Shown here: one piece after another, positions 1 through 23,325 of the stretch
Layout of the letters: every line of letters starts with the position of its first letter
Position numbering within the stretch: position 1 is the first letter of the stretch
DNA from: Phoronis australis
Lineage: Eukaryota > Animalia > Phoronida
Direction of reading: 5' to 3'
Length of the DNA stretch: 64,000 bases
NCBI GenBank assembly: GCA_002633005.1
Contig: NMRA01000075.1
Location: forward strand, 296,641 to 360,640
The notes under the pieces: generated by a model
The model's input: the letters and a program-made list of their open reading frames with translations, nothing else
Databases searched by the model: none
What the model was told of the DNA's origin: nothing
Program-made: the position numbers and the translations under genes

Positions 1-750
1 CGGTAAGACCAGCTTTTTTGACAGAAAACATGGGTTTAATGCCTCTTTAAACACTGTGGGAATATGCTAAGTTGTTACTAATGGTTTTGTTTATTTACTG
101 TAATTAGCAGTTTGGCACTGAATTCTTGTGTGATTAAGGCGTTGTTTGTTAAATGCCCTAAAACCGCTTTGAGGTGGTGAAGTTCTATTTATTTCTAAAA
201 TCTATTGGAATTACACCAACCTCTAGTATATGCAAACCTTGAACTGGATCTTCTCAGACTGTTGTTCATGACACGTGATGTGGCCAACAGGTGGCGTGCA
301 AACCAGACTTAAAAATGTTTGTGAATTATCCTCTAGCCTATTTACATTAGCGCTGCATTTCAGTTGGTCATTTTTCCTGTCATCTTTGATATCTCAGAGG
401 TGTAGTGAAAGTTTTAGACTGACATTCGAAAGGTCTCCTGTTCAAATCTTGTTGTTTGTAAAGAAGTCGGAAACACCACTCGTTCTCATATCCGTACTCA
501 TTCCTTTGAGAATGTAACACCAACCAAAATTTTGGGCTGATGTAAATAGACAAGAGGTCTGTAAACAGACCCATAGATTTTAGGAAAAAACAATCAAATC
601 ACCCAATCCATTCAAAAACCTTTAATAGGTCCATTCAGGATGTTTTTAGATTGTGCCATGTGTTGAATTTACTGATTAGATATTGTGCAATCTCCATATT
701 AATTAAGTGTGTAATTAACAGTCAAAACTGAGGTATTATCAAGCCACCCT

Positions 751-851
751 GGCTGTAGGCAAAGGTTGCCATTACATTTCAGGCTGTAGGCAATGGTTGT
801 CATTACATTTTAGGCTGTAGACAATGGTTGTCATTTCATTTCAGACTGTAG
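751..851 (+). repeat. 31-bp tandem repeat (3 copies plus partial) overlapping the splice acceptor of the LE exon
   Basis: ggctgtaggcaaaggttgccattacatttca-like units start at 751, 782 and 813. Confidence 0.85.
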
Positions 852-994
852 CTGTGATAGGACGGGTACAGTTGACCCCGCAGCGCCTTGTGAGGTCATC
901 ACTGGTCAATGCAGATGTAAGACAGGAGTCACTGGACGGAGATGTGACCAATGCATGTTTATGTACTATAACTTTTCAAGCACTGGTTGTCAAA
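845..994 (+). CDS. LAMA: Laminin alpha exon: laminin-type EGF (LE) domain
   Basis: [49 protein letters not shown], 8-Cys LE pattern; tttcag| acceptor and |gtaagg donor. Confidence 0.93.
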
Positions 995-3900
995 GTAAGG
1001 TTCTTAGCATTACTTGCAATGGTTAGACTCTAATAGAGTGGCTCTGTTGTACTTGCTGTGCAGGAAAAGCAGAGGTGCATTCCGTAGACCCAATAATCTT
1101 GTGCTAAACAGGACCATGCAAAATCATGCCAACGAAAAGACGAGTACGCTCAAAGGTACTTAACAGCCTAGAAATGGCAGCCACTGAGAAGTGATTGGTC
1201 AGCGAGGTTGGAATTCTTATATTATGGGATACAATTCAATGTTTCCATTCCATAAGTGGAGATTTCTCACCACACGAGCTGCTGCGTGAGCATCTTGGGT
1301 GTACGGATCGCAGCCCAGTTTTTATGCATTCTTGCTCTAAAAAATGAGAAAATCTTGTCAGGCTTTAAAATGATCATTTTTTGTGGAACGTAATTTGATA
1401 CTTAAAAAACTGTGACATAGCTAATAATTACCTAGTGCAGCATTGTGGTAAATGGTGCATTCTTTCTGACGATATGTTACATTTCAAGTTGAGGCTCTTG
1501 AGTTCCTGTCACAGTGGTAACGTGTCATTCATTGTAATTATTGTTAACATTAGAATGTGGTGACTGCCAGCAAGCCTTGGGCTCGGACTCACTGAAGTTG
1601 GCTGCTGTGTGGACTACGATGTACAACACGACCAAACATATCAACGCATTGAGAGAGGTGGACAGTGACCTGGAAGTGCTGCGGCAACAGCTCAACACTA
1701 CTTTGTCCAGTCTTGGTATATCATCTGAACGTCTCACTGATCTGTCCAGTCTCATGCAGAACCTGACCCAACAAGAACTCTTCATGAACACGACGGTCAG
1801 CAACTTTCAAGCCAAGGTGTGTGTGTGCGTGTGTAGGTTTGCAGTACGCACCAACAAAATGACCTTAAATTCACTGTCGTGATGGCTATGTGCAAATAGA
1901 AGTCCCCGCCATGAGGCTGAGTCCATGCTGTATTTGTCATCATCACAGAGAATGACTGTCATGGCATTTAAACAACATTTTTTCTCATTATTTTTGTCAT
2001 GTGCTGTATGTATTGTCAGCTCAGTACTTTATGGGCATTGTTGCATGCATTGGCTACTTCTTGGGTCCATTTGCCAGCGGTATATATCTCAGTCGTGGTT
2101 GTAGGATAAAACTATGTTTAGAATGAGTATAGAATGTTTATATTAGCTGAGAAATTTGCACTAGTTTCTATCTTGTTGTTGTGTGCTGAATGTATTTTGG
2201 TTCTGGTAAGTATTCAAGAAAATGGGAAGCGATTCATTCTTCACATTATTTTCACATTTCTGAAAATATGCCCATGGGCGTACGTATGGTGAGCCTAATT
2301 TTGGAAAGTCCTGAGACATTCATGATTTCATTTTCATGTCACTAACACAAGAAATGCGAATAGCAATTTAGCATTTACTGAATGGTACCACCACCGACAC
2401 TGTAGTGGGAGTTGTACTGTGAATTTCTTGCTCTTAGGTTGAATCAGCCTTGAATCGTGCCCAGACTCTGGAAACCACTGCCTCTGTCCAGCGCAGGCGG
2501 ATTACTGAAATTCAAGGGAATGCATCTCAAGTCCACGCCGAGATTTTGTCATCTGAAAGGCTGGCATCAGAGATGCTGACTTCATACAAGGAATACACCA
2601 TCAAAGGGACAGAGAATAAGAACTTGGCTAATGCTATCAATGCAGGGCTGACTGTGTCATTCAAGTCACAGCTGCAGCAAGTTAATGCTCATCTCAGTGC
2701 TGCGTCTGCTACGCTGGCTACTGTTAGTAACTTCTCGGCGATTATTCAGAATGAGGTAACGTCTTTGATTGAAGTGGCAGACTGAGTGTTTTCACTAAGC
2801 TTTCTTAACATGGAAGGCCACCACGCCCAAATTTGACCAAAACGCTCAAATTCTGAGCCCTCTTTCTCAATTTTTGATTCGATGGTCATATCAATTGTAA
2901 CTACGTTTATTAAACTATCATAACGGCAAGTCCCGAATATAAATTTATTTTCTCTGATACCCACTGTACTCTGAATATTACCATCTTAAACAAAATCATT
3001 ACTTGGTCTATTCCCTGCAAAATTTAGTACAGAACATTATAATCTCCGCTTTACCACTTGGCTAAAAATTGTGATTGGCATCGTTCCATCATGTCCGTTG
3101 TTCTCAAGCTAATCTTGGTGAGAACACTCTGCGGGTAATCTCACCCTTTATACGCCTTCTGTCATTGACAGCTGCTCAGTATTTCTCAATATTTTTTATC
3201 GCACAATCACGACAGTTTTGTCTTGAGAATGTAAAACTTTCGGATAACATGTTTCAAAGGTCATTGAGTGCATGTGTTAAACTTCAGTTGTACTGCATTG
3301 GGTGTAAATGCCTACTACTTATTGTGTGGTGGCACTGACCTGTTTATGGTGACTGAGTACAGTAACTGTTACATTGTAAAAGATGTGCGAGTATCTGAGT
3401 CATTGTTATGTGTCATGTTTTGCTTTGAATTGTTCTCATGGTGTTTCAGGCAATAGTCAGATATAACATGCCTCCGTTTTGAGAACCGGTTGATGCCCCG
3501 TATTCAGTGGAGAATACTGGTTCTCAAAATGTGGGCACGTTATATCAGACTATTACCGTGTTTCATCAGGGCTTGGAATTTTCCGCGGAAACGCGGATTT
3601 CCGCTTTTTTCAAATGTGCTTTCCGCTTTTTTTATAATATTTCCGCGTAAAAAAATCGGATTTGATATAAAATTTCCGCGGCAAATTCCTTTCTTACCGC
3701 GGCGTTGCAGACGACGTTCACCTCGAAAAGCGGAAGTTGCTCTTTATGTTCGGAGGAACGTAAATTGTCAACATTGCCGGGGCATCTGGGATAGCGTGGT
3801 GTGATTTTCAATGGCGTCTCGTATTAAGCGCGGCGATAAATACTACCGCTCTGCAGCCAAAAATGTGTGGGTTGGGAGTAGACGGGCGAGCTAAAAGGAC

Positions 3901-6900
3901 GCAGACGCATGCTACTGATGGTGGTAACGTTTTTTTTTATTTTTTTTTTTTATTTTTTTTTTAGTCCTCCCGATTTTTGTTGGGGAAAGGTTCACATTGA
4001 CAAGCTCTAGGCTGGTTATCGGGCGATGATTTGGGCCGTAAAAGTTTCCGCGTTTTTTGTCATTCGTCATTCCAAGCCCTGTTTCATGCAACAGACCTGC
4101 TGTGTATGCGCCATAAAGCTATTGGACTTCCTGCACTTTTACATAATCATCCAACCATTTACTCACTCAATATGCTGATATATGAACACCCACAAGTATC
4201 TATTTCAGAGTTGTGTGTTTAGCCTTAATGTTAACACAGGTCACAATCTGAATCTTAAGTTATATGTCTTCTGTGATGCTATGTTTTGAGTAACCATGAC
4301 AACCCTCCAAGCAAGAGCTTCATGTTTACAGGAGAGCTTGGCAAGTGCTGCCAGTAGGCGTGCTGACCAACTGATGACCAGTTTGCAAGATCTTCAGTCG
4401 CGCCACAAGGCCGTCATGAATCTGTCACGTCAAGTGTCTAACCTGGCTCAAGGAGTGTCTCAAGTGTACAACCAAACTATGGTAGGTTGTTTTGTGAACC
4501 GAGCTACATTCTATAGATGCAAGGCACTGGAGTGAGTCTCCGTGAGACATCGCAGTGTGTTGTAAGCGAAGCACTAGATTACATGTCTGGCCTCAATTGT
4601 GACTGTCTTGCTTCTGCTGTATGTAATGGCATTTACACAGTCATTTACAGTGCCAGAATTTCCTGTCTGAAATAACAAGCTTTTGATATAAATAGACTGA
4701 TATAGTCTTTTCAAACGGTTTCTAATTATTTGTTTTGAATACTTAGATATCTGATGTTTCCGATCAAGGTGGCCCTGGAAATATTGATTTACTTAATATA
4801 TAAGAATTTAAGTAAAGATTGTTGGATTGTGGTGCCCAAGAATGGAGGATGTCACTGCAATCATTTGACCTTCAGTCTAAATTAAAGCATTGCTGATTAT
4901 TCTCATTTTATGTTCAACCTTTTACAGCAAAACAAGCAGTATGCCGAATCGCTGTTTGCCCAAGCTGTGGTAGAACTGAACATCACTGACTTCACTCTGC
5001 GAACTGCACAGAAAGATTACAGTGACGCGGTGGCACTGTTGGGTGACATCCTAGTGAACTACATGGGAAGAGATACTTCAGGTAATACTCATCTCCTGTC
5101 TACGTGTATTCACCAAGTCTTTGTGTCATGCTGACCAATGAATGTTTTCGTACAAACAGAAATTGAAATGACTGAACTTGAATTGGAAGCTGTGTCGATA
5201 AACATTTTCTTGGTCTATCTCGATTCTTAATAATGAAGAATGATTCTTACTTTAGTTAAACAAATTACCAGAGCCCACTTGTTTTTCTGTTACAGAGCAT
5301 TACTTGAGCAGCAGACCATCTAGTATGTTTATAAGACTCCCTCTGTGGACTGGCATTTAATCCTTGTTTACCTGAATTGCCTGTTATAAACACCTTTGTT
5401 ACCATTTATTCTGATTACAACACATGAAAATATTTTTTAAGTCACTGATGACTACGATACGTATTCAAATTCAAAACAATTAGGCCACATTTACATAACG
5501 CTGTAAATTGTTGTAAGAACTTCGGAAATTATTACCTGAGTGTGTATGTGTCTGGTTAATCTTAACCATCGTCAACTCAGTGGGAGCATGTAGTGGTTGC
5601 TATTATTGTCAGAGCACACCAAGTAATTCAAGCACATTAAATTTGTAAATATTTATAATATTTGAATCTGAAAAAAATCAATACTTGCAATATTTCAAGC
5701 GATACATCATCACTAAACATCCACTATAATATGTGCACAGAAATAATGCCTGGCTTCTTGTTGTTAGTCACGTGGTTTCTTTTTAAAACAGTGGTGATAG
5801 TTTTGTTGTAGAATTTGAGTACTTTCAGGAATTAGTGTCACTCAAAAAGTTTCAATTCTGTATTCTATTAGTTACAAAGTTAGTAAAGTACAGACTGAAA
5901 CAATAGTTGTAGTCTTCATGGATTCAAAAAATTTTGATTTCATGGCTTGTCAATTTAATGTTTTTTTAATAATTTTAACCCTTAGTAATGAATTAGGTGT
6001 TGCCTCTCAGTGTTCGAGATCGTTACCTTGTTTGTCAGTCCAATTTCTCTGTTTAGGGTGAGCTACCTGACTTGAGTTGCTGTTTATTAAGTAAAACGTT
6101 TTCCTTTTTATTGTAGGTTATAAAATTTACACCACAAAAGGATTGCCCTGCGTGTTCCCGTTTTTCTATAAAGGAGTCCAGTATACCAACTGTACTAACG
6201 TTGACAACCCAGCAGGTTACTGGTGCCAGATAACACCCCCAGGAGAAGCCTTTGATTGGGGAAATTGCATTTTTGTGCCAATTCCACCCTGTAAGTTTTG
6301 GGGATATGGGGGGAAGTTATGCAAAAACTGATAAAGAATATGAATTAATGTTACATTTTAGAGTTGAATTAGAAACCTCTGTGTTAGAAGTGTTTAATAT
6401 TGAGGTTTGAAAATTGATTGCGCCCTAATTTTCATTTTGAAAAAACCCATAACCTGAGGAGTTGTTAAATTGTTGTGTGGCAAATGACTGCTCCCTGTTG
6501 TGATTGTTCGTGGGACAGAAGAGTAGTAACCAGTCATTCTACATAAAATTGCAGTTTGAATAAATGGTTGAATGTTGTTGGGTTCGTATCAGTCACTAAA
6601 TGTTAGTCATTTTATTAAGAACACTGACTTTACTTGAATGCCATTTCTGTCTTGTGTTCCAGCGGTCACTGGTTGGCAAGTGGAATCTAATGAGACTTTG
6701 TCTACACTCAGTGCCAGCCAGTCAGCACTCAGCGAAGTATCTTTTAAAGTCAACGGGGCTTTATTCCATGCTTCGTCACTCAGTTCGTTATCGCAAAACA
6801 TAGAAAGGTTGCCAACTTTTTAACAAATTGTCATTTGAAATATCATGGGATGCTTTATACTGTTGTACAGGGTGAACTTAAGAATCAAACCCATAACATC

Positions 6901-9900
6901 TGTAATCAATCATGCGTATTTCAAATCCATTTATTTTTTAAATTTTGATATGTTAGATGTTTCGGCAAAGTTTTAACATGAATACATATCAGTCTGCACT
7001 GAATTGTTCACTTTCTCCATAAGATTTCAGAAATGTAATACAAAATTTTTTGGGTTCATATTTTGGGTCATCCTGTACTAAACACTTGCGTGGTATATCA
7101 CCATAGATTATAGACATCAGATTCGCAACTCCGACATTTTCTTGTGAAATATCCTACAGGTTGCGCCACCCTCTTAAATGACAAATTTCAGTTTCCGGTT
7201 AATGTATTCTTGCTTTTATTTTACTGTCTAGTACAACATTGAAACTTTGTTCAAAGTCTGCTAATAGTAGAACTGTTGGTATCGTGAGTACTTTTGGCAA
7301 TGTTACTAGACATGTAATTGCAAAGTTCAAACTTCTGTGGTGTGGAAACTTAGTCCTTTACATTTCGCCTGTGTGGCTGAACACCTGACCACAGTACAGC
7401 CGACCATGATAAGCAGATGACAAATTTGCCGAAAGTAAAACTTGCTAATTTTGCCAGGTGTCACTAGTGAATAATAACATCACGGCTTATGCGTAAGAGC
7501 ACAGATTTCGTCCATTGAAAATATACGGAGTTGGCGGTCCATGTGCTGTAGTCTATGATAGCACGTATCAGTCTTACAGTCGGCCTAAGTGTGATGCGGA
7601 ACAGTTGTGGAAAAATTTTGCCATCATACGCTGGTCCTGTAACTGTCTTACATTGATGACATGACTTCAAGTGAATTGATATTATATGAGTCATACATTT
7701 GTGATATGAGTACCATGTACGGCAGTGGTACATTCATGACATGACTACAATATAAGGCAGTCATATATTCAGGTTATGTCGATGTGCAGTCAGTTAAGGA
7801 CTAGAACGTGATGAAATTGCATTGGAAAAGCAAATTCGACTTTATTGAAAGTTCCTGTTTTAACACCAGTTTTAAATAATTGATACCTGCTCAAAAATTT
7901 GCATTATTTGAATAAATGTGTATCTTGTCTAGCTTTTGAAGTTAAATGCTAAAACATAGTAATCTTGTCTCTTTATAGTGAATTTCGTAAAGTTCAGGGT
8001 CTTGGTCAAGATGCAGTCAATGCTATCGAAGGCTTCAAACAAGTCATTAAAAGCCTTGGCGAGTCAGTGGTTCAGGCAAAGAAAGCGAACGACACCGTTG
8101 CCCAGGCGATGGCTTCTATAAAGCAAATCACTGTGGCAGAGCTGGAAAATAGCGCTAGTACTTCCAAAGCTTTCTCTGACAGTTCATTGTTCCGTGCCCG
8201 AGCTAAAAATGGCACTGCAAAAAGTAAGCACTCAGAAACCGTAATTTCATTTGCACATCTATCTAGCAAGTGTTTTTGCAGTCATTTTCATTGTTCATTG
8301 AATATCTGCATTAAGAATAATTAACATTTTGTTGTCATGTTCAAGAGGACTGACATAACTGATAAAGCCATTGTAAGTGTTAGTTGGAGACTTGATTTTT
8401 GTACCTGCAAGTACTTAGATGTCTCGTATAATATTAAAAATACGCGGCCATGCCTTTTGGCATTGCTTTTAGTTCACCCCTTGGTTGTGCACAATTAGTG
8501 TTTAATACTCATGTTTGAAGCTTCATTGCAACATTTTCATTATCTTTTGTCTCTTTCATTTTAGCCTTGTTAGACCAGCTGAACAGTGCTAATAGCAGTC
8601 TTCAGACGAGTATTGAGACATGGGATAAATTGAACGCTGACTGGACACAAACAGAGACTAGAGTGAACAGTCTCAGTGACATAACCAAAGGTAATTTTTT
8701 AAAATTTTCATAAACAAGCGCAGCAGCAAATGCAGAAATAAACAATCACACAAAAATATTATTAAGTCAGATATTGCCTTGACACACCATTCAACCATGC
8801 TGTTTACTCATTTAATACATGTGCTAGTGTATGGGACAGTCAGTTTAAAAGTTCACTTACTGAGTCATGAATCAGAACCATTTGGTCCTAGTTTTCTGAA
8901 ATCGACATTTTTAACAGTAAATGAGCTTATCTGTTCTGTAAGCCATTTTTTATGAGCTTTTGATTGCAGGTATATGTCTTTGCGTAGATTCTGTAGTTTG
9001 CTGTTGAATGTTTCTTGCAAAACCCAAAAGGTATTATTACTATTAATTACAATATTTATGGAAATATTTAACCCTCATTATAAAAACCTTTGGTGAAACC
9101 AAACATAAAGTTCCATGATTAAAATTCATCACCTTGGTGGTAATTGAATATTATTCTTTGTTGTTGAAATATAACCAAGTGATCATATGTAGTAATGAAA
9201 TATTGTTATTGTTAAAAATAGAATGAAATGTCCAACAAATGCTCCCCAAGCTCTACCAGGGAAATCATTTAACATAAGTTTGAAAACAAGCATGAGGCGT
9301 TAATACTAAAATTAGAAGAACACTAATTTGCATTGCACTGGTTTGTATTAATACTAAAATACTACTTCAGTATGTTACAACCCAGCACCGAGACGTACAT
9401 TATAGAACATGTACTAAAAACACAAGATTTACTGGCATGGGGAAGGCTTTTGTTGCTCTTACCGTGCCCTCATTTCTGATGAAATGCTTATTTTGCCCAG
9501 TTGACACTTGGTCTTATCCGTAGGTTAATGAATGTTTCCTCTCCTTTCAGACGGCTCAATGCCTGCCATGTTATTCAACGGGCAGCAGAATGTGAATGCA
9601 GCCAACAGCAAGTCACTGGAAGTAGACAAGGAGAACAAACAGCTGCAGTCAAATGTGACTGGTCATAGTCAAGTCATGGCCGTGGTACAGCAACTTAGGG
9701 GGAATGTGTCCCAACTTCAGACGCAGCTCTCTGGCTCCTGTGAGTTTACCTTTGAAAGACCAGTAATTTAGTCTTTCACATTGATAATGAATTAATATTG
9801 AAAGAAATTATTAAACATGCTATCCCAGGTATGTCTTTTTATCTAACATGTATGCTAGTTGATCAAAATCAGGGGATATCTAAAAATTGTTTCAATAAGG

Positions 9901-12900
9901 TATCCATCAACCATTAGAATTATCAGATATGTGGCATCATGTTAATATGTTAATCCAGTTAAAATACAAAAGAAAAAAGTAACTTTTTTGAATTATGATA
10001 GTTATCAACTCTTATTTGCTTGGTTTAAATACTAAGCTTTATAATTTTTTCCAGAAAGAAGAATGACTAACCAATAGCTGAATTATGGCACCATGTTTTT
10101 AATATTCAGTTCATAAAGTTTTGGAAAATCATGTTTCTTTCAGTAATAACATACAACAATAGTTTGCTGGACATGCAAGCCAAGGTCAGTGAAATCATCA
10201 ACTCCAAATCAGACTCTTTACGAGCCACCATAGACGCAAAGTATGCAGTGCTTCAGGAGAAGCTGGCAAGAGCGAAACAGCTCGCTGAGAAACTAGAGCA
10301 ACCTGTCAGTTTCCGTGGAAACAAATCTGTGACTATCTCTAATGAAGTGCTGGTTTCGTCTTTTAATGATGTCTCTCTTGAGTTCCGCGCTGCGGTGAAC
10401 TCAACGGGACTACTTTTCTTCGCGCAAGGAACGAGTTCCGTTTCCGAGTTCACTGTACAGCTGAATGATGGCAAGGTGGAGTTTGTGTTCAACACTGGAA
10501 ATGGAGCGACTCAAATTAAGAGCCAGGCCAATATCTGTGATGAATGCTGGTTCAGAGTCAGTGCCAGTCGGTAGGTTAAGATAACAAGGATTACACTTGT
10601 GGTGTCTTGTCAGGAATAAACTTTTGATAGGTGTCACTTACAATTATAAAGTTTCTCATTTTGTTCCTTGTATGTACTGTAAAGGACATCAAGGCTTGAG
10701 AAGAATTGATGAAATTGACTATTGTGTCAGTCCAGCGGTGTCACTGTCAGCAGCGTGTCCAGCGGTGTGACTGTCAGCAGTGTGTCCAAACATGGCTAAT
10801 TTTGAAACATTGTATCTTAGAAATGGCTCGTTGAGTTCAAATTAAACTTTCAAATACTTTCTTTTATACTTTGTTCTCCTAAGTGCTGTTAGGAATTGCT
10901 TATAAAATTATCATTTTTTTCAAGAGGGTCTATCGAAAAAGAGGACTTTTCTGATTTTTCTGAAAAAAATCAGAAGTTGGAGAAAATGAAATGATAACTA
11001 CAAATCTGTAACAGTGATTTTTAAGATTTCATCTTGAATGAATTAGTTAACATGTTATTGATGCCGTTGCTATGAAATTACACCTCTTTTTTGAATTTAA
11101 TGAAAAAATGCTGTCACAACCCAATTAATGGCAGATTTGTATATTAAATGAAAAGTGAAATTCTAATCTGCAGTCTTCCTTCGTTAATAAATACATACCT
11201 TTACCAAGTGAAATGTTTTGTATATATTTGGCTGAAAGTGCAGAATTGCCGACAAGGTCCCACATAATCTTAACACCAGAGCGAGGCTTAAGGCAGCGGA
11301 ATTAGAGTTGAACCTTTTGAATTTCTGAATAGAGTGTTAAAATGGCTCTGTCATTTTGTGAGGAATTTTGTAAGTCTTCATGATATATTTTGGCCATCCT
11401 CAAAAGGGATGTAAGTTGTCCTTCATTATTTTGAAGTTGTGTTTCATTTTTTAAATTAAAGTAATTAAACAAGTGACTAATTATTTATGATGGATGTAGG
11501 TACCTGACTTTTGTCACCAACTCAAACACTGGAACTTGTAATTACAATAATCACTACACTGTAATCCTTCCATTCCATCCTGTTCCTCTCTGTTTACAGA
11601 TACTTCAACAAAGGTTTGCTGGTTGTCACTAAGTTGGCCACAGATGGAAGTGCGAGCGACTATGCTGAAGGTCCTAGTACTGATCGCAACATGTCCCTGG
11701 ATGGACAGTATTACCTGGCTGGCATACCTCAGGATGTTCCTGTGTCGGTAAGAAGTCGGTTGGTTTTGACCATGTTTGTGGTAGAGCTCTTTACATGAAT
11801 TAGCTGCTGTTTACTCATTCTAATGAATTGTAAGACACGTGACCTCCAATTACCTTTTGTAATCATCAGTCAACAAATTTGCTTATTCTTACATGTGGCT
11901 ATCAACCTGCCTGCTTTTGATTTGGAACACTTACCGTTATGATTTTGATCTTAAATTGTACTTAATCTGAACAAATTGGAAGTGATTTCAGCGCTTCAAA
12001 CAAACCAACTGTCCGTAAATTTCTTCAGACCCAGCTCGTAAAATTTCAGATCAAGTCTGAAAAAATATGTCGAGAAATCCCGCCGGTTCTTTCCAAGCCC
12101 AGACATCACTTTTAAATTGAGTAAGAAACAAGATAGGACCAGTTTTTTGACATGAAGTGACCTAAATCAAAGTGTAATTTTTTTTGACAGCATTGAGTTT
12201 AATGCCGCTTCACATGCCTTTGCAGACTGAGATGTTTTGATTCGCGATTTTTCTTTGTTACATTTTGCTTTCTTGTGAAACTCTGCAATGAGGTCAAGTG
12301 TTTGATCGTTGTTTTTAGAGTGGCAAGTTGGCTACCATGCAGAAGTTCACTGGCTGCCTTCATAATGTGAAATACAACAGTCGTCCAGTCAACCTGTGGC
12401 GGCGAATGAAACTTGAAGGTTACACATCTTGCTGTGCCAAGCCAACAGAGTCCGTGGAAACAAAGCTTCCTGGTGCCTCATTTAATGGTTTTGGCTACTT
12501 ACGGCTAGCACAAGAATCATTCGACATTAGCTTGTTTTCGCATGCCTCTGTCGAATTTAGGACATTTTCGCCTGATGCAGCTTTATTGGTGCTTGGCAAA
12601 GACAGTGTGGATGAAAAGTATGGTGTGATTTTGGAAGGAGGCCGTGTTGTTTTTCAATATGGCCGTGAAGGAGCCATGTTTGAATTGAAAAGTAGCAAGG
12701 CTTACAACGATGGACAGTGGCACAAGGTTTGTTTTCATGTCTGATCTGAATGATTATGCAATAAATTTTCAATTTATGGAATTAGCTGCTTCACCTTCAG
12801 TGTGAAAATGAACATTATTTCACAGTGATTTAAAAAGTTTTACCTCATTTATTTTACACAATGTTAGGCAATGAATTCTTTCAACTGACCTATTTATAGT

Positions 12901-15900
12901 TGGGGTTATAATCCAATTCAAAAATTGTTGCTGGCAGAACATGTTAAAAAACAAAATGAAGATCCTCTGAAGATAAAGCATTTTTAATTTACCTGCAAGC
13001 TCAGAATAAACCTTAGGACAACACTGAATGTGATTTACAGCTTAAAGTTTCTTTGCCGGAATAGTTTAGCGACGTGAGTTGACGACCACCATGTTTCATG
13101 TTATCAATAACTTTCTTACAAATGTTATCATTGGAAGATGTTATGACGATTTGATCCATGTTATTTCGTTGACTGTTATTTAGCTTGTCGTGGCCCACAA
13201 CACAACTTTCATGGAGCTGTCTGTGCATGACATCATGAACAACAGTCAGACGACAGTCAGTGAGACAAAGGCGACCTCTACTGGATCAGTGCAGATGTTT
13301 GACCTAAGTTCAGGAGCACTGCTCTATCTGGGTGGAAGTCCACCAAGCTTGTAAGTCATGGGAGGTGCTGGTGTGTTCTATCTACGCTCATGTGCCACAC
13401 AGGCTTATATACATGTACATAAGAAAGCTCAGCAAATTTGTATTTGCAACAATGAATATGGCTTTAAGTTTTGGAGGCTTTGCTTAAAAGGAAGATAATC
13501 TGTTTTGGGATTATTGGCTACTAATCTAAATAAGAAATCTGTTGTGTCTTGTGATTTGATTGCAAATCGCCAGTTTTTGCCATTGTCTATCAACCATCTG
13601 CTGAATTCAAGTCTGTTGAGTTTTGCCAAATTATTCTCTGCCATTTATGGAGATCTAGTCTTTGGCTTGGCCATAAAATAATTGCACTGCGGCTACTGAG
13701 GTTGTGAATTTGATTCTGCGTTAGGGGTGATCTCAGAAAACCATTTTTATCTCCTTTGTCACTTTAAAACGGTTACCACTCACCAAGGAAAGCATGGAAA
13801 ATGACAAAAGATAATCATTTCAGGTAAAACTCATGAAAAATGATAAAGTCATAAAAAACTCATGGCAGTATAAAATCTCCAGTGAACATCTTGTTTTTTT
13901 TGTTCATTGCATTCAGTTGAATGTGTGAAATTTTTTACTTTTTGACGTTATCACTGTAAGGAAAGCTACATAAACAGAACCCTGTGAATTATGTCATTAG
14001 ATTAAGATGAACTGGTTTGTGTTCTTGCTTGAGGTAAATTGAATGCAGCGCAGCTTAGAACTTAGTACTCATCATTCACAACGGTTGTGTGTTATCTTAC
14101 TTCCAGTGCTAAATGGAACAACACCAAGTCCTTGGCTGGTTGTGTCCGTAGGCTCAAGTTAAGTACGATCGTACCAACATTATCAGATAGGCAGCTGACT
14201 GCAGCAAATGCTGTCAGCCAATCAGAAGTCAGTTTTGATGGTTGTTATGTAGAGGTGAGTACAGGCACTTCCTACAGTATTGAAACCGAAGCATTTAATA
14301 ACTGCAACCAAAAAGCACAATTTCTGAAGTATTTTTGATGGTTTACTAAGTAAACATAACCCCGTTATTGTCACCTGTGGGTTTCATTCTTTGTGGTATT
14401 TTTGCCAGAGTTGCTGTTAGTATTTGTCAAAGTGGTTGATTGTGTGGTTGAATTTGTTCAGGCATTCGGATATTCTGTCGGCTTGTAAATTAGGGCATTA
14501 TTCTTTGTGCAACTTAGCATTTCACCCGTGTGTCTTTTACGTGACCTATTTTTGTTAGGCACAATTTTCTCTAGTCCTCCATATGCATGTCACTAATAAA
14601 GAAGTTTTTAGTGTTTGTATTATTCAGAGCTTGATGTGAACCATGTTTCAAATGCTATCATTTTGAAATTGCTTACAGGTGGTCAAAGGTCTCAATGTTC
14701 AAACTTACAACTCTTATGCAAGTTACAATGTTGGCCGCACGCTAAGAAATTTCAGGACACTCGAGTTGCAATTGGCTACTCAGCAGAGTTCAGGGGTCGT
14801 GTTCTATATGGCTTCCAGCCAATCTTGGCAGAGTGTAAGTGATGCATTATTTTATTCTTGACCACTCTACTCTTTTCTGTATTATATGCTTTGGTTTTCC
14901 AGTCAAATGTTTAAAATTGCCGCTAATTATTGTGGCTGTCTCATATAACGTGAATGTATTGAATAGATTCCTGAGTGTTTATTCCATTTACTGAGATTTT
15001 GATTCAAAACTAATTGAAATTGCTGTGAAAAAAATACTTCTCCAATGTGAAATTTGGCATGGCCTATGTCTGGAAAAGATGGGAGTTGGTCCTGGCTGAT
15101 GACCAGTTTATGATTTTTCCGAATACTTGCAGAAGGCGCTCATCTTGTCTCTCTTCAACGGGAACCTCCTTCTGTTGTTCTACGATGAGAACGGTGACCT
15201 GAAGGACGTTCTTACGTCCTATGACCTCAGTTTGGCAGACGGCCGATTGCACTACATTACCACAGATTTCACGTCATCAAGGTTTGCCAGCTTTGCTTGG
15301 TTTTAAGGCACTACAAAGCTTATCTTGTGTTGTATTTGAAGGGTTTTGGCTTTATGCTAATTCTTTGCATTCTCATCCATTGGACTGCTGTTCATTTTGG
15401 AATGTCGAATATGGGAGTAACTGTAACTTGTTTTATTTAATAAAAAGAAAATGTTTTGTTATGGCAGCATTGAGTGTGATAAAAAGTATGTTGTCTTGGT
15501 GACGTAAACTTTTGATGTTTTCTTTTATCACCATGGCTGAGACGCAGAATTATGACTTTTGATTTTAGTATTAAATTGCATTTGACTTTCTTAGGCTGTC
15601 GAGTTTTATTCCTTGTTGTTATTAAGTTGTAAGCATGAGAATAGTATGTCATGTTCTTTTCTAGCCCGCAGCTGATTGTAGATGGTAGAACATTCATCTC
15701 AAGCCGAGCCTTCACTACGGGTCTACACATTCTGGACGACCCGAGTCACGTGTACCTTGGAGGTCTGCCGCATGGATTTGTCACGGATCATCTGCTACCC
15801 ACAATGCATTCGCTTGTGAGTGGCATTCAAAATGTCCGCCTGAACGGAAAGTAAGTTGTGGATTCATTTCAACGCTTTTTAATGTTGGAGATTGTGTAAA

Positions 15901-18900
15901 AATAAGGATCACTGCATGTAGGTTAAGGTCAGTGTTGCCCATTGCACAAAGATTGTAAACCAGATTATGGACTATCTAGATGACAAGCATGTTCTTTTGG
16001 TGCACAGCTGATATTGTCCTCTACATTGGTCAAAATTGTTACATTGAGTTCGGTCCAAAGTCTTGATGTCAGGTTAGGGATGTGGTCTGCTGAGCACGTT
16101 TGGCAGATTTTTGGTGAGATATCACCACTTGTTACGATGATACAAGCAGAGCATGTGCTTGTAGTTGTGAGTATTGCATGCTGCAGAACGGATCCCAGGT
16201 TTGTACCAAGTCTATAATCATTACTCATAGTGGTATGAGTGGTCTGTTTTACGATTTGACTTTCGATATTACTGAAAATGTTAGATGGTTCTTATGCAAA
16301 TGTTACAAACAGTCCTTACATGGTCTTAGTAAGGCTGCAGACTGCAGCATCTAGACCCAGTTACACCAGCTTACATCAAATTGTAATAAATCTCACGAGT
16401 GCTGAATCCGATTGCAACCAGAGAAGTCCCTGTGGTTAATCATGTAAAATTGAATCTCTTACATGTCAAAATAGAGGCTGGTATTTTAAAGTAACGTTCA
16501 AGGCGGCACAAGTGCTGAAAGATCCCCTCTTCATTTTTGCATTGATTTGATTCTCTTCCAGCCCACTAGATGTCACAAATGTTCAGCTCTTCACTAGCCA
16601 TAGACACGTGTCCTTGACCTTTGGCGTGCCCAAAGACGGTGTACCACCTCTTCCCTATTCTACAACGACTCCCGTTATCACGACACCTGCGCCTACCTGT
16701 TCCCCAGTTACGGCTAATCCCCAGCCCATCCGAAATGCGGTCAGATTTGGTGACATGGCTGACAGCTATATTTTGTATGACTTAGCCAAGATGAAATGGT
16801 TGACTCATCTCAATGCAAGGTACATGCTGTTATTTTTTTCTTAATGACATACTTGGCCATTTATGCCCATGGACCTGTGTGTGGCTCCGCCTGTATCGGA
16901 ATTTTGGTTCATGAAACAAAAAATGCAAATTAAACCGTTGTAGTTAAACATGGGTGTAAGTTTAAATCTATTGGTGATGGTTGATACCTAACTTGAATGA
17001 AAACACAGGTCATGTAAATTTTGTTCCTACAATATGTTAGAAGCATCTCACTGACCACATTCATGTCATATATTGCCAAAGTTATGAGTAGCTAGGCTTA
17101 TTGCATGATTTTCGTCTACGTCACCATGAGAATTCTCGATCAAGCATAGCAAACATTGTTTTGTTTAATATTACTCTCATCTGGTACCAGCAACTTATAC
17201 ATAGAATTTCTACCACAGCACAAGCGAGCATTCGCAACTACTGCCATTGGCTAATTTTTCTCACTTTGCTGCTTTCTCAAGGTCAGACTGAATATGGTAC
17301 AAAAATTCACTTATCATTTGGCATGCACGAGTTTGTTTAAATATTTTTTCTTGTGTTGCTAAAACATTGCCAGGACTTTCAGTATAGTCCCAATGCATCT
17401 AGAGTAAATAAAACATCCATTCGAGGAAGGTTTTAAGTTATTAGAGAAGATGGCCGTAAAATTATCCCGTTTAAACTATTCATGGCTAGAAGACACAGTC
17501 ACGTGTCTGCACCTGTATTAGTGAACCTTAGGCTCATGTGCTTTTGTGTGGAACATATGAGTGAGATGGTTTTTTGAAAAAAATCTTTGAAATATAGGCA
17601 TGTGTCTGAAAGTGTGCACTTACACATAGTATCAGTTGTAGAATAACTTTCATTGGTTGTTGAAACCTTAATATTTTTGTACAAAATTGAAATCCATGTC
17701 CATAAGCATGGACCTGCTTGCAACAGTTGATCAATATTAAGAAAAATTAACTGGTGTGTCGAAAATTAATGATTCACGGTGGACTGTAAGTAATATCAAT
17801 TCTTTTCTGCTGTTTTCACCACTCTGGTTTTAGTTGGAAAAAACAATCGTTTAGTCATTCTATCTTGTCACTTTTTAGTGGGCTGTGGGAATTTGTGTCA
17901 AGACGGATCTGAAAATTATTTCATTTAACAGTGAGAGTACATGCCAGAAGTACAGTTTGGGCCCATGGGTGTGCACCTGTTGTCACCTGTCGTGTCTGTT
18001 TTACACAATTCCTTCTTGTGAATCCATTAGTCAAAACACTTTATTACTACCATTAACAATGGCAGTTCACTTGGCATGTGCACTGCTTACGTGATGAGGA
18101 ATTTCAGGTCGTTGTTTGGTTACGTTTTGCGTGCACTGTATTTAGCTCATAAAATACTATAATTTCTTCTGCTTTCAGTTTTGTGCTGAACTTAGACTTT
18201 AAGGCGTACGCTTCTGAGGGGACTGTGCTTACCATGGTGAATGCTGATCTGAACCCAGAGAACTATCTTAAGGTCTTCCTGTCTGGCGGGTATCTTGTCG
18301 TGCGCATGATGACATCACTGCGCGTCGAATATGAGCTCCTGTCCACAGGTCGAGTGGACACAGGGGAGGTTATCCAGGTATGTAATGGGGTGTTTGTTAA
18401 CGATTTGGTGCACGTGCACTGTGGGAAGTTCTCTGTAGCAGGAAAATTTTCTTGGTCATTAGGTTTCGGGCATTGAATAGTCTATTTATTTTTCTGAATC
18501 TAAGTAAAAAGCGTTGTGTAATTCTTATTTGAACGTGCAGAATCTATCCCTGTTTGGGTCATGCGACCATGTCTGTTTGGTAAAATTTAACAAAAACAAA
18601 GGTGTGCTCACTGAAATCCTGTTGCAGTTTTCTTATGGAATTTCATTATCTTCTGGTTTTTGCTTAATTAAACTGAAGAATTTTTCCATAAATACCATCA
18701 AAGTATCAATTTTCGATGGCACGTCTTCCAAACGTTAGCTTGCTTGCAAATTGGTCTTGAGATCTTCTTCACTCAGTTTGAAACGTGGCTTTGGTACACA
18801 GTTAGCCGGTCTTAACACTCCACAATTTGTGCGAAATAATTAAATTTCACTTGAGCAAAAATTCCTGAGAACATACTTGTAACTGTTAGTTTCTGAGATT

Positions 18901-21900
18901 GTTTCTATAAATTATTTTTATAATTATTTATCTAGACTTTTATTCACCAATTGTGAAGTGGGAACGTAAGACGAAATTTCTGTCTTAAGTCATCTTTCAT
19001 GAAATGTTCCCCAGTGGCCAGAAAACACATATTGTCCTTTCTTATACTGTTTGTGTCGCGTTACGAAGCCAATTTTTGGCTTTGATACAAATTGAGAGTG
19101 AACTTTACGTTGAATTCTCAGTATTTTTGAAAATTATATGAGGGATCTTTTCATGCAATACCTCTCTAAATGAAAGGACTAATTCCTAATTATTTTAATT
19201 GAATTAAGAGCTGGGTTTTATTGATATTATATGAAATGTCATTAGTTGAAGAGTAGCTCATAATAAAGATAAAATTAATAATAGAAAAAATTACATCTGT
19301 GAGTAAAGAACAAGCAAATATGCTAAAGACTTCGAAAAGTCAGTTGAGTCCCTGTTTGGGATTGTTTCATGCAACCGGCCACTGGGGTCTGTTTGTGCTT
19401 TGAACAGGTTTTCATGTAATGACGAACTGTTGGTTCTTCCCAAGCCATGAGGTCACTTTTAATCATTGTAGGGAACATGTTGTGACCACTTTTATAGCGG
19501 CAAGTAGCCTGAAAAAAAGTATTGGCAAGTTCATAGCATTTGATTTTCTATCTCGTCTGTTTAATTCTTAATATATGTCATAATTCTACTCATGTTTTGC
19601 ATGATGTCTTGTTCTAGGCCAAAGTTCTTCGTATCCACGATTTCTTAGCGCTGTACATGCCCTCTGGTTACTCTAGCAATCTGAAGTCATCAGGCCCAAA
19701 GTCGTATTTTACGGCCAACAAGCTTTATCTGGGAGGAACTGTAAGTATGCACGTCATCAATAGAAGCTTGTAATGGCCATCACCAGAAGTTTCATTGCAG
19801 TTGCTTTAGATATCGGCTGTGGTAGAATTTGCTTAAAATTCTTTCCTGCTCTTGATTCACATTGAATGGATGGAAAGCCAGTCTCCCAATGGTAGATTTG
19901 TCCCAGGGTCTCGGGACCTTGTGTTGCAATTTTATTCTCACGTTTAGCTAATTCAGTACACCTGCTATACAGTGAACTGTGGATGGTCTCCATTGGTGGT
20001 CTGGATTTAGCAGCTTGACATCTTTATAACTCTCTAGTTTAATTTTGACTGGATTTTGATTTGGATTGCTCCATACCTGTTTGTTTGTGTATCATAGTTC
20101 AAACAAAAAGTCTCCAACAATTTTGTGTTTAAAGCAAAAAATGCACTTATAAACGACTTTGTGACTTTCAAGCCTTTTCAAGGTTTTTCAGGCATCATAG
20201 ATTGAGAAAATTTTAATATTTCTGTGGGTTAAGAATGGACACATTTAAAACTAAGGCTATTTGAAAAAACGTGGAAGGTTGTCGTGAAGGTTGGATTTTG
20301 TTTTCTCATTTTTCACACAAACAACATAATTAGCTCCAGAGCGGAGTTGCTGTCTGACAGTGCTTTGAAAATTTATTGGCATTCACAGCTGTTGTTGGGA
20401 TCTTATGACAAGATAAGAAAGAGATGGTGAGGCATTTTTTTTTGTTCAGAAATAATGAGATTTTACCCGGCTGAGAGTTCTATGTTGGAAGTAAATTAAA
20501 TTTAAAAAAACACAAGGAGTCGCGATATTTCAAAGGTTAGCAGCCACTTTGGCATTATGCTTACATCCCCATAGTCATATCCCCAATCTGCACATTGGGC
20601 ATAACCTTATTAATCAGGTATGAGATCGCATAACCATAACAAATAAAATGTCTTATATGGTGAAAGTTTTTATTCATGAAAATCGAAACTTTTTGGCTCT
20701 CTTTCTTTCTAGGCATCGCCTTCTACGTCATTCCATGGGTGTATTCTCTCGGTGCTCTTCAACACAAATATTACTGACTTGAGTTTGCCATTAGAGTAAG
20801 TGTCTTGAGTGTTGATATTAATATAGTACATGAGCTGGGCATGGCCTGTCATGTAACCAGTTTTTCATCTTAAACGTGATAAGGGTATGGAGTGGTAAGC
20901 ATTATAATCGACCTAAGCACGGCTTTCTAAAAAAATTTTAAAATAACAAATTATAGCACTGCTGTACAATTTTCATAAAAGCAAACCTTCATAATCTTGT
21001 CCCAAACCTCTCTCGTAGTTTGAAGCAAACAATTCCCAGTGCTGAGAGGAATTCTCACTATGACTTGATTGATTTCCAGGGGATTCTTGGCAGTTACTAT
21101 GTTTATTCAGTATTGAAATTGCTCCCTTTCAGGTCACCTGAACCTGTACGCACTGGTGTTGCTAGTTGCTACAGTAACATAAGGAATGGCTTGAAGTTTG
21201 ATGGTTCTGCGTATGCATTGCAACGTAAGTCCCTACTTGTTCATACTAATATAGCAGAGTTCAAATTTTTCATGATTCCTTTTCTGCAACAGTGGCACAG
21301 TTTTATTTTGACGGGTGCAAAATTTGTGATGCACCCATCCCTCTGGGACAAAGTTGTTTGTAGTGATAAAAATAAGTTGCAGACTATTCAGACAGGGTTT
21401 AAAATTATCATTCTTCAAAATGCTGTATTTCTCCATTCATGTCATTTGAAGATTAGAGAATCTTGTCAGAATGAAAGGTCATGCAAAATTACGTGAGTGA
21501 AGGGCTTTTCATTTGTGTTTTGGGGGCCTTAGTGTTGTTATATGCAATCTGGTGGCCACTGAAGTGGTTGGTCGGTGAGGTCGGCAGTTTGAAACATGGG
21601 ACGGAATTAACTGGTTCCATTTCATAAGCAAAGATTTTTTCCTCATGTGCAGCACTTGTGTTGTCCAATCATTTCTCAGATTTAATAGCTCAAGCCATGG
21701 AAAATGTGAAACACGTGCAAAACTTCTGAAAAATGAGTGTTCAATTAATGTGTGAAGCATGTTCACCAAACATTGCTTTTACGTTCTTCAGGTTCCAAGT
21801 TTGTCATAAACTCCACCAACCTCAAGATTGACATGACTTTTACCTCTTATAATGACTCCGCCAACCTGCTGACTATATACAGTTCAATGACATCCTTCTT

Positions 21901-23325
21901 CGTCATCGACCTCTTGAAGGGACAGGTAAGTTTGTCACAGAATTTCGGGTGTCACTTTTAATAGTTTGAAGGGAATGTTGTTCCAGATGGGTTGTGGGTA
22001 ATTGCCCTTGAGTGTTGATGGAATTTGCAGTCACGGAAAGATTTCTCTGAATTTCTCATTCTGTAGGTAAATGCAAGAGGAACCATGAAAGGGATTTGAG
22101 AAATGCGCATATGTACATTAGGCATTCAAAGAGGTGAAGTTTTGCAATTCGAAAAAAACTTGCAGTCATCTCTTTTGACAAGTATCTGCTGTGCAATGGA
22201 ATGTTCTAGTGACTCGCTAAAATACTTAGTACATCGCAAACCATCGTATTTGGCTGAGTAAAATTATAGCATTCACCTATCTCAACTTGGCATGGGTTTT
22301 CATGTACAATATGAAATTGGTTCTGAGGAAACCATTTATCCACTATTGCTGCAATAAAACATTTTAATTAATGCCATATACCGGGTAATATATAATAACT
22401 TTGCCGAGGCCCTCCTATTAGTATTTATTGTGCAGTTTTCTTTCTCAAGAGATATTAAGGTAGTTACCAATACTGTTTTTTTGAAAGGTAGGCCCTAGTA
22501 GCAAACAAATTATGTCAACCATAATTTATGCCAATATCTACTGTAATGTGGCATTGAAAATTTAAATGGTTCAGAAAAGTCAGACAAAAATATAACTTCA
22601 GTAATCAAGAAACAAAAAGATAAAACATGCTCTATCAAAGCTATTAATTTTCAATCGGTCAAGGTATGAAAACAGATTAATTTCAATGGTAAATGCTCCT
22701 GACCAGTGGTGTCTATTCCCACATGATCAATTGCCGCGTTCCTTCCTCGAAGGCTCTCATTTTGCCAAAACTTGACTTAGAGGTATGTACCTATTTTGAC
22801 TAAGTGCATTGTGGTGAGTGTTTTTAGCACTTTATTAAGGTCTTATGTCAAAATAAATAAATGTAGTTCACAAAAACAGCAATAACTGGTAGTAATGCAT
22901 TAGTGAATTGAATTTGCTTGTTGTTAATAGCACTGGTTACGTTTCTGTTTCCGTAGGTTCGTGTCACCCTTGGTAACTCCAAATCAGCCAATGAACCATA
23001 CACAGCTGCGTACAATGCTGAACTGACCAAGCACTCCATTTGTAATGCAGAACCTCACAGACTGACCGTCGGTCTGGGTCCGTACGGGCTGGACATTAAA
23101 GTAGACAGTCAGCCGGAGCAGGGGTACGCCTTCCTACCTCCCATCTCTAACGCCCCAATGCCACTTTATGTTGGCGGCCTACCACTAGGTGGCACCAATA
23201 TCAAATTTCCAATCACCGTGAGCAAGAAGGGTTTGGAAGGTTGTGTGTCGAGATTGATCATTAATGGACAAGAGATTTCAACCTATGAGAGCCTGGTGCA
23301 GACGCGGTATGGATGTAACGCGTAA
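845..23325 (+). CDS. LAMA: Laminin alpha chain, 3' part (25 exons; 5' end lies upstream of the window): LE - CxxC - coiled coil (with FN2 insert) - LG1-LG5
   Basis: Hand-spliced exons: 845-994, 1554-1816, 2438-2755, 4332-4481, 4928-5081, 6117-6290, 6663-6807, 7979-8223, 8565-8690, 9551-9739, 10144-10570, 11600-11747, 12319-12726, 13184-13350, 14107-14254, 14679-14834, 15133-15281, 15665-15850, 16562-16819, 18179-18377, 19618-19740, 20713-20795, 21133-21224, 21792-21925, 22957-23325. All introns are GT-AG with matching phases, giving one open frame to TAA at 23323-23325. The LE/coiled coil/5xLG order is diagnostic of laminin alpha. A probable upstream donor (cg|gtaaga) is at position 3. Confidence 0.93.
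1554..1816 (+). CDS. LAMA: Laminin alpha exon: CxxC and start of coiled coil
   Basis: [12 protein letters not shown]...NFQAK; phase 1-0. Confidence 0.88.
2438..2755 (+). CDS. LAMA: Laminin alpha exon: coiled coil
   Basis: [12 protein letters not shown]...IIQNE; phase 0-0, heptad-like. Confidence 0.88.
3567..4081. mobile_element. Intronic hAT-like MITE
   Basis: 13-bp TIRs CAGGGCTTGGAAT / ATTCCAAGCCCTG; flanks tgtttcat and tttcat (target duplication); subterminal TTCCGCG repeats. Confidence 0.75.
4332..4481 (+). CDS. LAMA: Laminin alpha exon: coiled coil
   Basis: [10 protein letters not shown]...YNQTM; phase 0-0. Confidence 0.87.
4928..5081 (+). CDS. LAMA: Laminin alpha exon: coiled coil
   Basis: [10 protein letters not shown]...GRDTS; phase 0-1. 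Confidence 0.87.
6117..6290 (+). CDS. LAMA: Laminin alpha exon: fibronectin type II (FN2) domain inserted in the coiled coil
   Basis: [58 protein letters not shown] matches the FN2 pattern C-x-FPF-x-Y-x-G..Y..C...WC...WG-x-C; strong acceptor (ttccttttta ttgtag) and donor (gtaagt); 174 nt, phase 1-1. Confidence 0.88.
6663..6807 (+). CDS. LAMA: Laminin alpha exon: coiled coil
   Basis: [12 protein letters not shown]...QNIE; phase 1-2; weak donor gttgcc. Confidence 0.8.
6868..7075. mobile_element. Intronic Tc1/mariner-like MITE
   Basis: TA-CAGGGTGA...TCATCCTG-TA with ~25-bp imperfect TIRs. Confidence 0.55.
7979..8223 (+). CDS. LAMA: Laminin alpha exon: coiled coil
   Basis: [16 protein letters not shown]...NGTAK; phase 2-1. 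Confidence 0.88.
8565..8690 (+). CDS. LAMA: Laminin alpha exon: coiled coil
   Basis: [26 protein letters not shown]...DITK; phase 1-1; not in the ORF track. Confidence 0.85.
9551..9739 (+). CDS. LAMA: Laminin alpha exon: coiled coil
   Basis: [14 protein letters not shown]...QLSGS; phase 1-1. Confidence 0.87.
10144..10570 (+). CDS. LAMA: Laminin alpha exon: end of coiled coil and LG1
   Basis: ...[23 protein letters not shown]...GLLFF...[15 protein letters not shown]...WFRVSASR; phase 1-2. Confidence 0.92.
11600..11747 (+). CDS. LAMA: Laminin alpha exon: LG1
   Basis: YFNKGLLVV...YYLAGIP; phase 2-0. Confidence 0.88.
12319..12726 (+). CDS. LAMA: Laminin alpha exon: LG1 end and LG2
   Basis: [11 protein letters not shown]...SFNGFGY...[11 protein letters not shown]...YNDGQWHK; phase 0-0. 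Confidence 0.93.
13184..13350 (+). CDS. LAMA: Laminin alpha exon: LG2
   Basis: [14 protein letters not shown]...LLYLGGSPP; phase 0-2; not in the ORF track. Confidence 0.88.
14107..14254 (+). CDS. LAMA: Laminin alpha exon: LG2 end
   Basis: [11 protein letters not shown]...SFDGCYVE; phase 2-0. Confidence 0.88.
14679..14834 (+). CDS. LAMA: Laminin alpha exon: LG3
   Basis: VVKGLNV...[16 protein letters not shown]; phase 0-0. Confidence 0.87.
15133..15281 (+). CDS. LAMA: Laminin alpha exon: LG3
   Basis: [16 protein letters not shown]...LADGRLHYI; phase 0-2. Confidence 0.87.
15665..15850 (+). CDS. LAMA: Laminin alpha exon: LG3
   Basis: PQLIVDG...VYLGGLP...[10 protein letters not shown]; phase 2-2. 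Confidence 0.9.
16562..16819 (+). CDS. LAMA: Laminin alpha exon: LG3-LG4 Pro/Thr-rich hinge and LG4 start
   Basis: [22 protein letters not shown]...[11 protein letters not shown]; phase 2-2. Confidence 0.88.
18179..18377 (+). CDS. LAMA: Laminin alpha exon: LG4
   Basis: [17 protein letters not shown]...[12 protein letters not shown]; phase 2-0. Confidence 0.88.
19618..19740 (+). CDS. LAMA: Laminin alpha exon: LG4
   Basis: [13 protein letters not shown]...KLYLGGT; phase 0-0. Confidence 0.86.
20713..20795 (+). CDS. LAMA: Laminin alpha exon: LG4
   Basis: [17 protein letters not shown]; phase 0-2. Confidence 0.86.
21133..21224 (+). CDS. LAMA: Laminin alpha exon: LG4 end / LG5 start
   Basis: [22 protein letters not shown]; phase 2-1. 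Confidence 0.87.
21792..21925 (+). CDS. LAMA: Laminin alpha exon: LG5
   Basis: [16 protein letters not shown]...FVIDLLKGQ; phase 1-0. Confidence 0.87.
22957..23325 (+). CDS. LAMA: Laminin alpha terminal coding exon: LG5
   Basis: VRVTLGN...SICNAEPH...PLYVGGLP...[12 protein letters not shown]...YGCNA*; not in the ORF track. Confidence 0.92.
   Translation, partial: VRVTLGNSKSANEPYTAAYNAELTKHSICNAEPHRLTVGLGPYGLDIKVDSQPEQGYAFLPPISNAPMPLYVGGLPLGGTNIKFPITVSKKGLEGCVSRLIINGQEISTYESLVQTRYGCNA

Follow-up and report, generated by a model that had tools for sequence, protein, structure and literature searches.

A fibronectin type II module spliced into the long-arm coiled coil of a laminin alpha chain of Phoronis australis

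The window, the whole 64,000-nucleotide stretch that we analysed (Phoronis australis, assembly GCA_002633005.1, contig NMRA01000075.1, positions 296,641 to 360,640 of the forward strand), opens with part of a laminin alpha gene. Guided by tblastn with orthologues, we built a model on the plus strand at 845-23325 that comprises 25 exons and encodes 1,652 aa, with introns that are all GT-AG and a single, terminal stop (Table 1); it represents the part of the gene inside the window, and the 5' half, encoding the N-terminal half of the chain, lies upstream. The domains run in the order last LE (laminin EGF) repeat, CxxC, coiled coil, LG1-3, Pro/Thr hinge and LG4-5. The hallmarks of a laminin alpha chain are thus present, LE repeats being followed by CxxC and then by a coiled coil of ~550-600 residues, and the alignment of the model with orthologues that possess five LG stretches extends to its C-terminal end, in line with five C-terminal LG domains and a hinge between LG3 and LG4.

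Table 1 Exons and domains of the laminin alpha gene model in the window, with the evidence for each (joints are given as last/first exon position)
Feature	Position	Strand	Evidence
Last LE (laminin EGF) exon of the short arm	845..994	+	Pfam EGF_laminin E 6.2e-13; model
CxxC and first ~285 coil residues, ending in the loop-opening Gly	1554-1816, 2438-2755, 4332-4481, 4928-5081	+	model; RNA joint 4481/4928
FN2 domain and 7-residue Pro-rich tail, phase 1-1	6117..6290	+	Pfam, PDB matches; RNA joints 5081/6117, 6290/6663
Loop-closing conserved Trp and second coil half	6663-6807, 7979-8223, 8565-8690, 9551-9739	+	model; RNA 8223/8565, 8690/9551, 9739/10144
Coil end and LG1-LG3 (exons 1-4 of 8)	10144-10570, 11600-11747, 12319-12726, 13184-13350	+	Pfam Laminin_G on two exons of the eight; tblastn; RNA 11747/12319
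Coil end and LG1-LG3 (exons 5-8 of 8)	14107-14254, 14679-14834, 15133-15281, 15665-15850	+	tblastn; open model
Pro/Thr hinge, LG4-LG5, stop (exons 1-4 of 7)	16562-16819, 18179-18377, 19618-19740, 20713-20795	+	tblastn; model only
Pro/Thr hinge, LG4-LG5, stop (exons 5-7 of 7)	21133-21224, 21792-21925, 22957-23325	+	tblastn; model only

Between the two halves of the coil lies a 174-nt exon, flanked by AG and GT, in phase 1 at both ends and with an open frame, that encodes a fibronectin type II (FN2) domain. The Pfam fn2 profile (PF00040) matches it over its full length (model positions 1-42 of 42, E 2.1e-8) at 34.5 bits, 12 bits above the cut-off (gathering score) of 22.2, which bears out an earlier reading of the sequence alone in which this exon had been taken for an intact FN2 with four cysteines, here at a spacing of 14/11/14, and a complete aromatic core. 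Searches of the PDB returned 22 distinct sequence matches at E<=0.01, among them MMP-2, MMP-9, PDC-109, fibronectin, CI-MPR and factor XII, and all 30 ESM Atlas matches shown or counted are generic fn2 clusters of 70-85 aa. When a single-sequence fold, a poor model (pLDDT 59.9) of what would be two sheets with 1-3 and 2-4 disulfides in an FN2, was submitted to Foldseek, the top three rows were FN2 structures, at E >= 1.1. With the modules of MMP-2/MMP-9, Endo180/mannose receptor (MR), fibronectin and PDC-109 the domain has in common the fn2 match, the four cysteines, the CxFPFxY and WC motifs and a Trp three residues before the last Cys; it differs from them in being present as a single copy and in having loops before and after Cys3 that are each shorter by one residue.

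The phase of the exon fits a class 1-1 module of the exon-shuffled kind, phase 1-1 introns being described as a mark of shuffling (PMC8001218). The 3' intron falls seven residues past the last FN2 cysteine, and the Pro-rich tail thus included carries Phe, Pro and Pro at positions -10, -8 and -6 from the conserved Trp downstream. In the alignment, read by eye, Pro occupies both -8 and -6 in 10 of 13 gastropod-clade rows and -6 in all 13. The tail is probably host-derived, to judge from its resemblance to the ancestral loop end of gastropod orthologues, in which case the exon is not a clean cassette. A word-index search with the FN2 exon, restricted to proteins of 101-2000 aa so that full-length chains were invisible to it, found no FN2 sharing three 5-residue words, a weak negative that suggests that the module is not a recent copy. 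Two amino-acid replacements within the exon were additionally revealed by RNA reads: Lys becomes Asn at 6139 (A>T, 14 of 14 reads) and Gly becomes Arg at 6173 (G>A, 11 of 15). Neither affects a cysteine.

Splicing was assessed with three raw RNA runs bearing the same species label, of which ~18-19/100 each was read and in which the region 700-12800 was covered; the listing threshold was three reads per joint, with 2 and 1 joints omitted. Both junctions predicted for the FN2 exon were recovered, 5081/6117 in 9 reads (2+4+3 over the three runs) and 6290/6663 in 6 (1+2+3), at GT..AG borders, and every first mate mapped to the minus strand. Similar read numbers support the neighbouring junctions, which range from 5 to 10 (4481/4928, 7; 8223/8565, 5; 8690/9551, 10; 9739/10144, 6; 11747/12319, 6), and RNA depth around the FN2 exon is restricted to exons. 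Altogether 7 of the 24 junctions of the model were seen in RNA and the others are modelled; 6807/7979 was not seen among the listed joints. Inclusion of the FN2 exon looks constitutive. The symmetry of the exon, which would allow it to be skipped in frame, and the low read counts are what could be said for a minor or artefactual inclusion (an alternative exon, or a mosaic of the assembly) in a gene whose main product is an ordinary chain. We regard this as very improbable, since both joints occur in every run at the level of their flanks, no 5081/6663 skipping joint is listed for the three runs (at ~18-19/100 of each, a result compatible with minor skipping), and skipping would remove the tail that matches the ancestral loop. 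RNA coverage of two intronic repeats, at 3500-4085 and 7100-7565, was much higher than that of the exons, came from both strands and was rich in variants; these repeats are probably dispersed small mobile elements rather than laminin exons. A further RNA run, of assembled contigs, aligned to intronic repeats only.

Judged by its protein sequence, the host gene is a member of a third class of laminin alpha chains, ~3,000 residues long, that stands apart from both alpha1/2 and alpha3/5. When 1.84 billion representatives were searched with the exon 12319-12735, 245 matches resulted, the best among the 150 listed having ~42% identity. The best matches to the whole model are proteins of ~2,900-3,100 aa from Owenia, Lineus, Ptychodera, Anneissia, Branchiostoma, Haliotis, Elysia, Helobdella, Saccoglossus and Lymnaea. 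A profile built from nine of these proteins retrieved 1,289, and among the best 120, which were examined, the first 27 (4,231-2,069 bits) belong to the third class, adding Nematostella, Montipora, further molluscs, Dimorphilus and echinoderms, while the rest (<=1,754 bits) are alpha3/5-like by length and domain list. In a BLAST of the model against 274 fetched proteins the 36 best were likewise all third class (559-232 bits), followed by an alpha3/5 chain at 214. Third-class orthologues align with the model over its whole 1,652 aa at 23-31% identity. The class was thus found in cnidarians, spiralians, ambulacrarians and amphioxus; no vertebrate or ecdysozoan member was encountered, and the class matches of our word-limited searches include none from bivalves, cephalopods or brachiopods.

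Trees of the coiled coil and LG domains (38 rows, 1,482 columns, after exclusion of the FN2 core and of 9 sequences that were fragments or near-duplicates) set the third class apart from alpha1/2 and alpha3/5 on a long branch with support of 1.0 / 100. The window gene groups with the spiralians of the class (0.989 / 96.7), and its placement there as sister to the molluscs is weakly supported (0.48 / 29). Several species carry a canonical gene besides the third-class one, namely an alpha1/2 gene in Lottia, Helobdella and Branchiostoma and an alpha3/5 gene in Ptychodera, Lytechinus, Biomphalaria, Apostichopus and Diadema. The canonical chains resemble the window gene in their LE repeats, CxxC, coil of ~550-600 residues and LG1-5, but form a separate clade, have a median coil length of 557 aa and possess no conserved mid-arm Gly/Pro loop. 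Members of the third class (e.g., Owenia CAH1795786.1, Ptychodera XP_070542660.1, Helobdella XP_009009792.1, the Lottia and Haliotis proteins, and the Nematostella and Branchiostoma predictions) share with the window gene the length of the coil, the position of the loop with its Gly and Trp anchors, the LG3-LG4 hinge and the five LG domains, yet in all those examined the loop is devoid of FN2. Their database labels are inconsistent (alpha-1-, alpha-2-, beta-1- or epi-1-like).

The alignment gives the layout of the class as an LN-like N-terminus, about five LE repeats, a globular insert of ~200 residues, LE, one L4, LE, the coil and five LG domains; we read the globular insert as being possibly like the LF domain of beta chains. 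In the N-terminal ~300 aa of the orthologues (P0004, P0008, P0021 and P0164-P0182), Pfam Laminin_N recognises the Nematostella and Montipora members (113-115 bits) and gave no match in the bilaterian members scanned. The polymerising ability of bilaterian third-class chains may therefore have changed, and polymer formation by the window chain is not assured, because the bilaterian LN escapes the Pfam profile and the N-terminal half of this gene lies outside the window.

Within the sets searched, the FN2 was met in the window gene alone. None was found in the 274 fetched proteins by phmmer and a pattern scan, and PF00040 is missing from the Pfam lists of the best 120 of the 1,289 profile matches. 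A word-index search with the LG1 exon, limited to proteins of 250-2000 aa and blind to full-length chains (a weak negative), scored 0 of 1,017 candidates, and of 148 pattern matches in metagenome contigs searched with exon 12319-12726 none was confirmed. The claim of a non-canonical laminin alpha architecture made by the sequence-only reading therefore stands in so far as the arrangement is transcribed and was met in no other protein of these sets; what that reading had missed is the class of the host gene and the loop that already existed at the site.

This loop begins 286 residues after CxxC in the window gene and is followed by ~285 helical residues, within about 10 of the earlier estimate of ~295 and ~290 aa. 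In 25 of the 28 orthologues that cover the site, a conserved Gly and a conserved Trp, or another bulky hydrophobic residue in its place, enclose a Gly/Pro-rich span of 18-23 aa, which is 6 aa in Branchiostoma and 5 in both Nematostella and Montipora; in the window gene it measures 68. After subtraction of the 44 residues of the FN2 core, the coil of the window gene is 591 aa long with the loop at 286, and of the 15 orthologues in the tree that possess the loop, 13 have coils of 578-591 aa with the loop at 272-287, mostly at 283-287 (the two exceptions being Amphiura, which has an extra stretch, and Liolophura, which is mis-anchored). The three loop-less members have coils of 572-575 aa. Helical length is therefore constant across the class, and the loop and the FN2 are extra. 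The G/P-rich linkers remarked upon earlier do exist, but they are largely the ancestral loop of the third class and not linkers brought in with the FN2; among orthologues the loop sequence varies freely.

Consistent with a break at this site, an AlphaFold2 model of a fragment of the Saccoglossus orthologue (22 aligned rows, single chain) has helices at 17-111 and 131-226 separated by a coil at 112-130, the longest break in its coil, at a low local pLDDT of about 40-65. A control count gave Pro/Gly scores of >=6 at coil positions 270-315 for 22 of 31 class proteins (isoforms included) versus 5 of 135 other alpha chains, and the high scorers inspected among those 5 have no common motif. It is likely, on these comparisons, that the FN2 loops out of a ready-made break without a register shift. 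Some chains outside this pattern were set aside: P0035, an alpha3/5 chain with a mid-coil Pro/Gly stretch, shows no Pfam match in that stretch and appears to result from a faulty gene model, and the long coils of P0088, P0171 and P0178 are due to repeats or extra stretches elsewhere. Separately, the sea-urchin alpha3/5 chains P0233 and P0262 contain a short four-Cys interruption late in the coil (positions ~455-485), and other echinoderm alpha3/5 chains have 4-5 Cys in the coil, which is ~30 aa longer than the median; this Cys-rich late-coil interruption is possibly another alpha-chain knob.

What the FN2 may bind was addressed by comparison with characterized modules. According to PMC4635314, gelatin is a ligand of the FN2 modules of MMP-2/9, fibronectin, MR and Endo180, and in Endo180 the mutations Y193A, R206A/D208A and Y219A each abolish this activity. 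Counting positions from the cysteines, the window FN2 keeps equivalents of Endo180 Y193 and W225. Equivalents of R206 and D208 are missing, and the interval from Cys2 to Cys3 contains no Arg; the Y219 position holds Gly or Pro, with no aromatic whichever cysteine is counted from, and the F227 position holds Asn. An alignment with MMP-2 indicates the same losses. Of the gelatin-binding set Y193, R206/D208 and Y219, only the Y193 equivalent is therefore present. In domain b of PDC-109 the phosphorylcholine site consists of Y75, W93, Y100 and W106, and collagen binding in the pocket has also been reported (PMC2823774). Three of these four aromatics are kept in the window FN2 (Y75, W93 and W106, a mapping that assumes the usual FN2 register), and the pocket aromatics Y100 and Y108 have no equivalents. 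The pocket thus appears partly intact and not of the canonical gelatin type.

These observations weigh on the proposal, put forward from the sequence alone, that the module binds collagen IV or gelatin-like segments and so connects the laminin and collagen networks without nidogen. Some evidence is in its favour: besides the retained Y193 and W225 equivalents, the aligned stretch of PDC-109 domain b likewise lacks an Arg from Cys2 to Cys3 and this domain is reported to bind collagen (PMC2823774), and nidogen-independent linkage is a recognised open question (PMC11260871). A collagen link is made doubtful, however, by the absence of the key gelatin-binding residues, each of which was essential in Endo180. 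Moreover, as described in PMC4635314, single FN2 domains are weak binders (the three MMP-2 domains together bind gelatin at only 10 uM), triple helices are taken by MR and Endo180 only and require an extended FN2-CTL1 surface, or trench, and DEC-205 and PLA2R possess FN2 yet do not bind collagen. We therefore consider the collagen bridge unlikely, and the idea that it would stand in for nidogen found no support.

A second alternative, somewhat less unlikely although still clearly a minority reading, is that a mobile FN2 exon of phase 1-1 inserted into a loop that could accommodate it and persists as a harmless, tolerated passenger with no specific ligand. The occurrence of FN2 in one genome and in 0 of 274 proteins, the absence of the gelatin determinants and of two pocket aromatics, the two non-synonymous variants that segregate in the three RNA samples, and an orthologue loop that is freely variable and absent in three orthologues all speak for such a passenger. 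It is harder to reconcile with the intact cysteines and core aromatics and a full-length Pfam match 12 bits over the cut-off, with inclusion that looks constitutive, and with the lack of any FN2 sharing three 5-residue words, weak evidence that makes a recent copy less plausible.

The reading that we favour, at a probability of about 0.5, is that of a spliced third-class alpha gene in which the FN2 sits in a pre-existing loop, folds as a knob midway along the rod and offers weak docking to some matrix component distinct from canonical gelatin; the architecture itself, an FN2 spliced into a laminin alpha coil, is very probable whatever the ligand. Under the favoured reading, the module would have been acquired by shuffling of a phase 1-1 exon, and its insertion would have been tolerated because the site was already looped out. 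The alpha helix would stop at the conserved Gly and resume at the conserved Trp, so that the chain trimerises normally, with the beta and gamma chains running on in register at the FN2 as they do past the L-beta interruption. The partly kept aromatic pocket would bind its ligand weakly, avidity being supplied by the many laminins in the matrix. With the 77 nm long arm of laminin-111 taken as the scale, the knob would be ~38 nm away from both ends, in the part of the arm to which agrin binds in vertebrate laminin (the agrin site, the L-beta interruption and the arm length are from PMC6744579). A more far-reaching version, in which the third class is as old as the cnidarian-bilaterian split, its mid-arm loop is a plug-in site, and the FN2 there provides a ligand-binding knob that bridges laminin directly to collagen IV or another network where vertebrates dock agrin, seems to us improbable as a whole.

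The L-beta element measures about 30 residues and is located nearer the N-terminal end of the coil. It is a Cys-containing heptad interruption compatible with the trimer (PMC6744579), as the FN2 site would be; unlike the insert described here, it belongs to the beta chain and is not an FN2. The laminin long arm has been treated as a continuous three-chain rod in which L-beta is the sole globular-type interruption, and in the window gene a module that probably folds is spliced into the alpha chain. The conserved, looped-out mid-arm site would be a natural register-neutral insertion point, useful for work on coiled-coil register and for the design of tagged or linker laminins. Were the knob to bind collagen IV, it would offer a direct, one-lineage answer to laminin-collagen linkage without nidogen, an outcome that the sequence makes less likely.

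Fahey and Degnan (2012) reportedly recognised an extra chain type common to sponge, Nematostella and sea urchin, and the third class may therefore be partly described there. In the portions of the literature available to our search there was no FN2 in a laminin coil and no description of a third alpha class, with that possible exception. The accessible texts of PMC4582122, PMC12549020, PMC5395295 and PMC4466143 contain nothing on such a class; the Nematostella member may be included in the matrisome tables of PMC12549020. The typical bilaterian toolkit is described as having two alpha subunits and that of Nematostella as having one (PMC3308698), a picture that omits the third class, whose members are mislabelled in databases.

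The rest of the window contains an assembly gap of 138 N at 62146-62283 and several mobile-element remnants, at 39415-39750 (-), 45054-45803 (-) and 46057-47817, which comprise a CXC (TCR) domain, a weak reverse-transcriptase fragment (E 6e-4) and a GC-rich, retroelement-like stretch with no Pfam match. An intronless leucine-rich-repeat gene with a likely membrane-spanning segment lies at 27439-29213 on the minus strand; its frame changes near 28700-28790 and it has an in-frame stop at 28297-28299, so that it is either a pseudogene or affected by sequence errors. Finally, an isolated fibronectin type III exon of another gene is found at 50248-50622 on the plus strand (Pfam fn3, E 4.3e-8).
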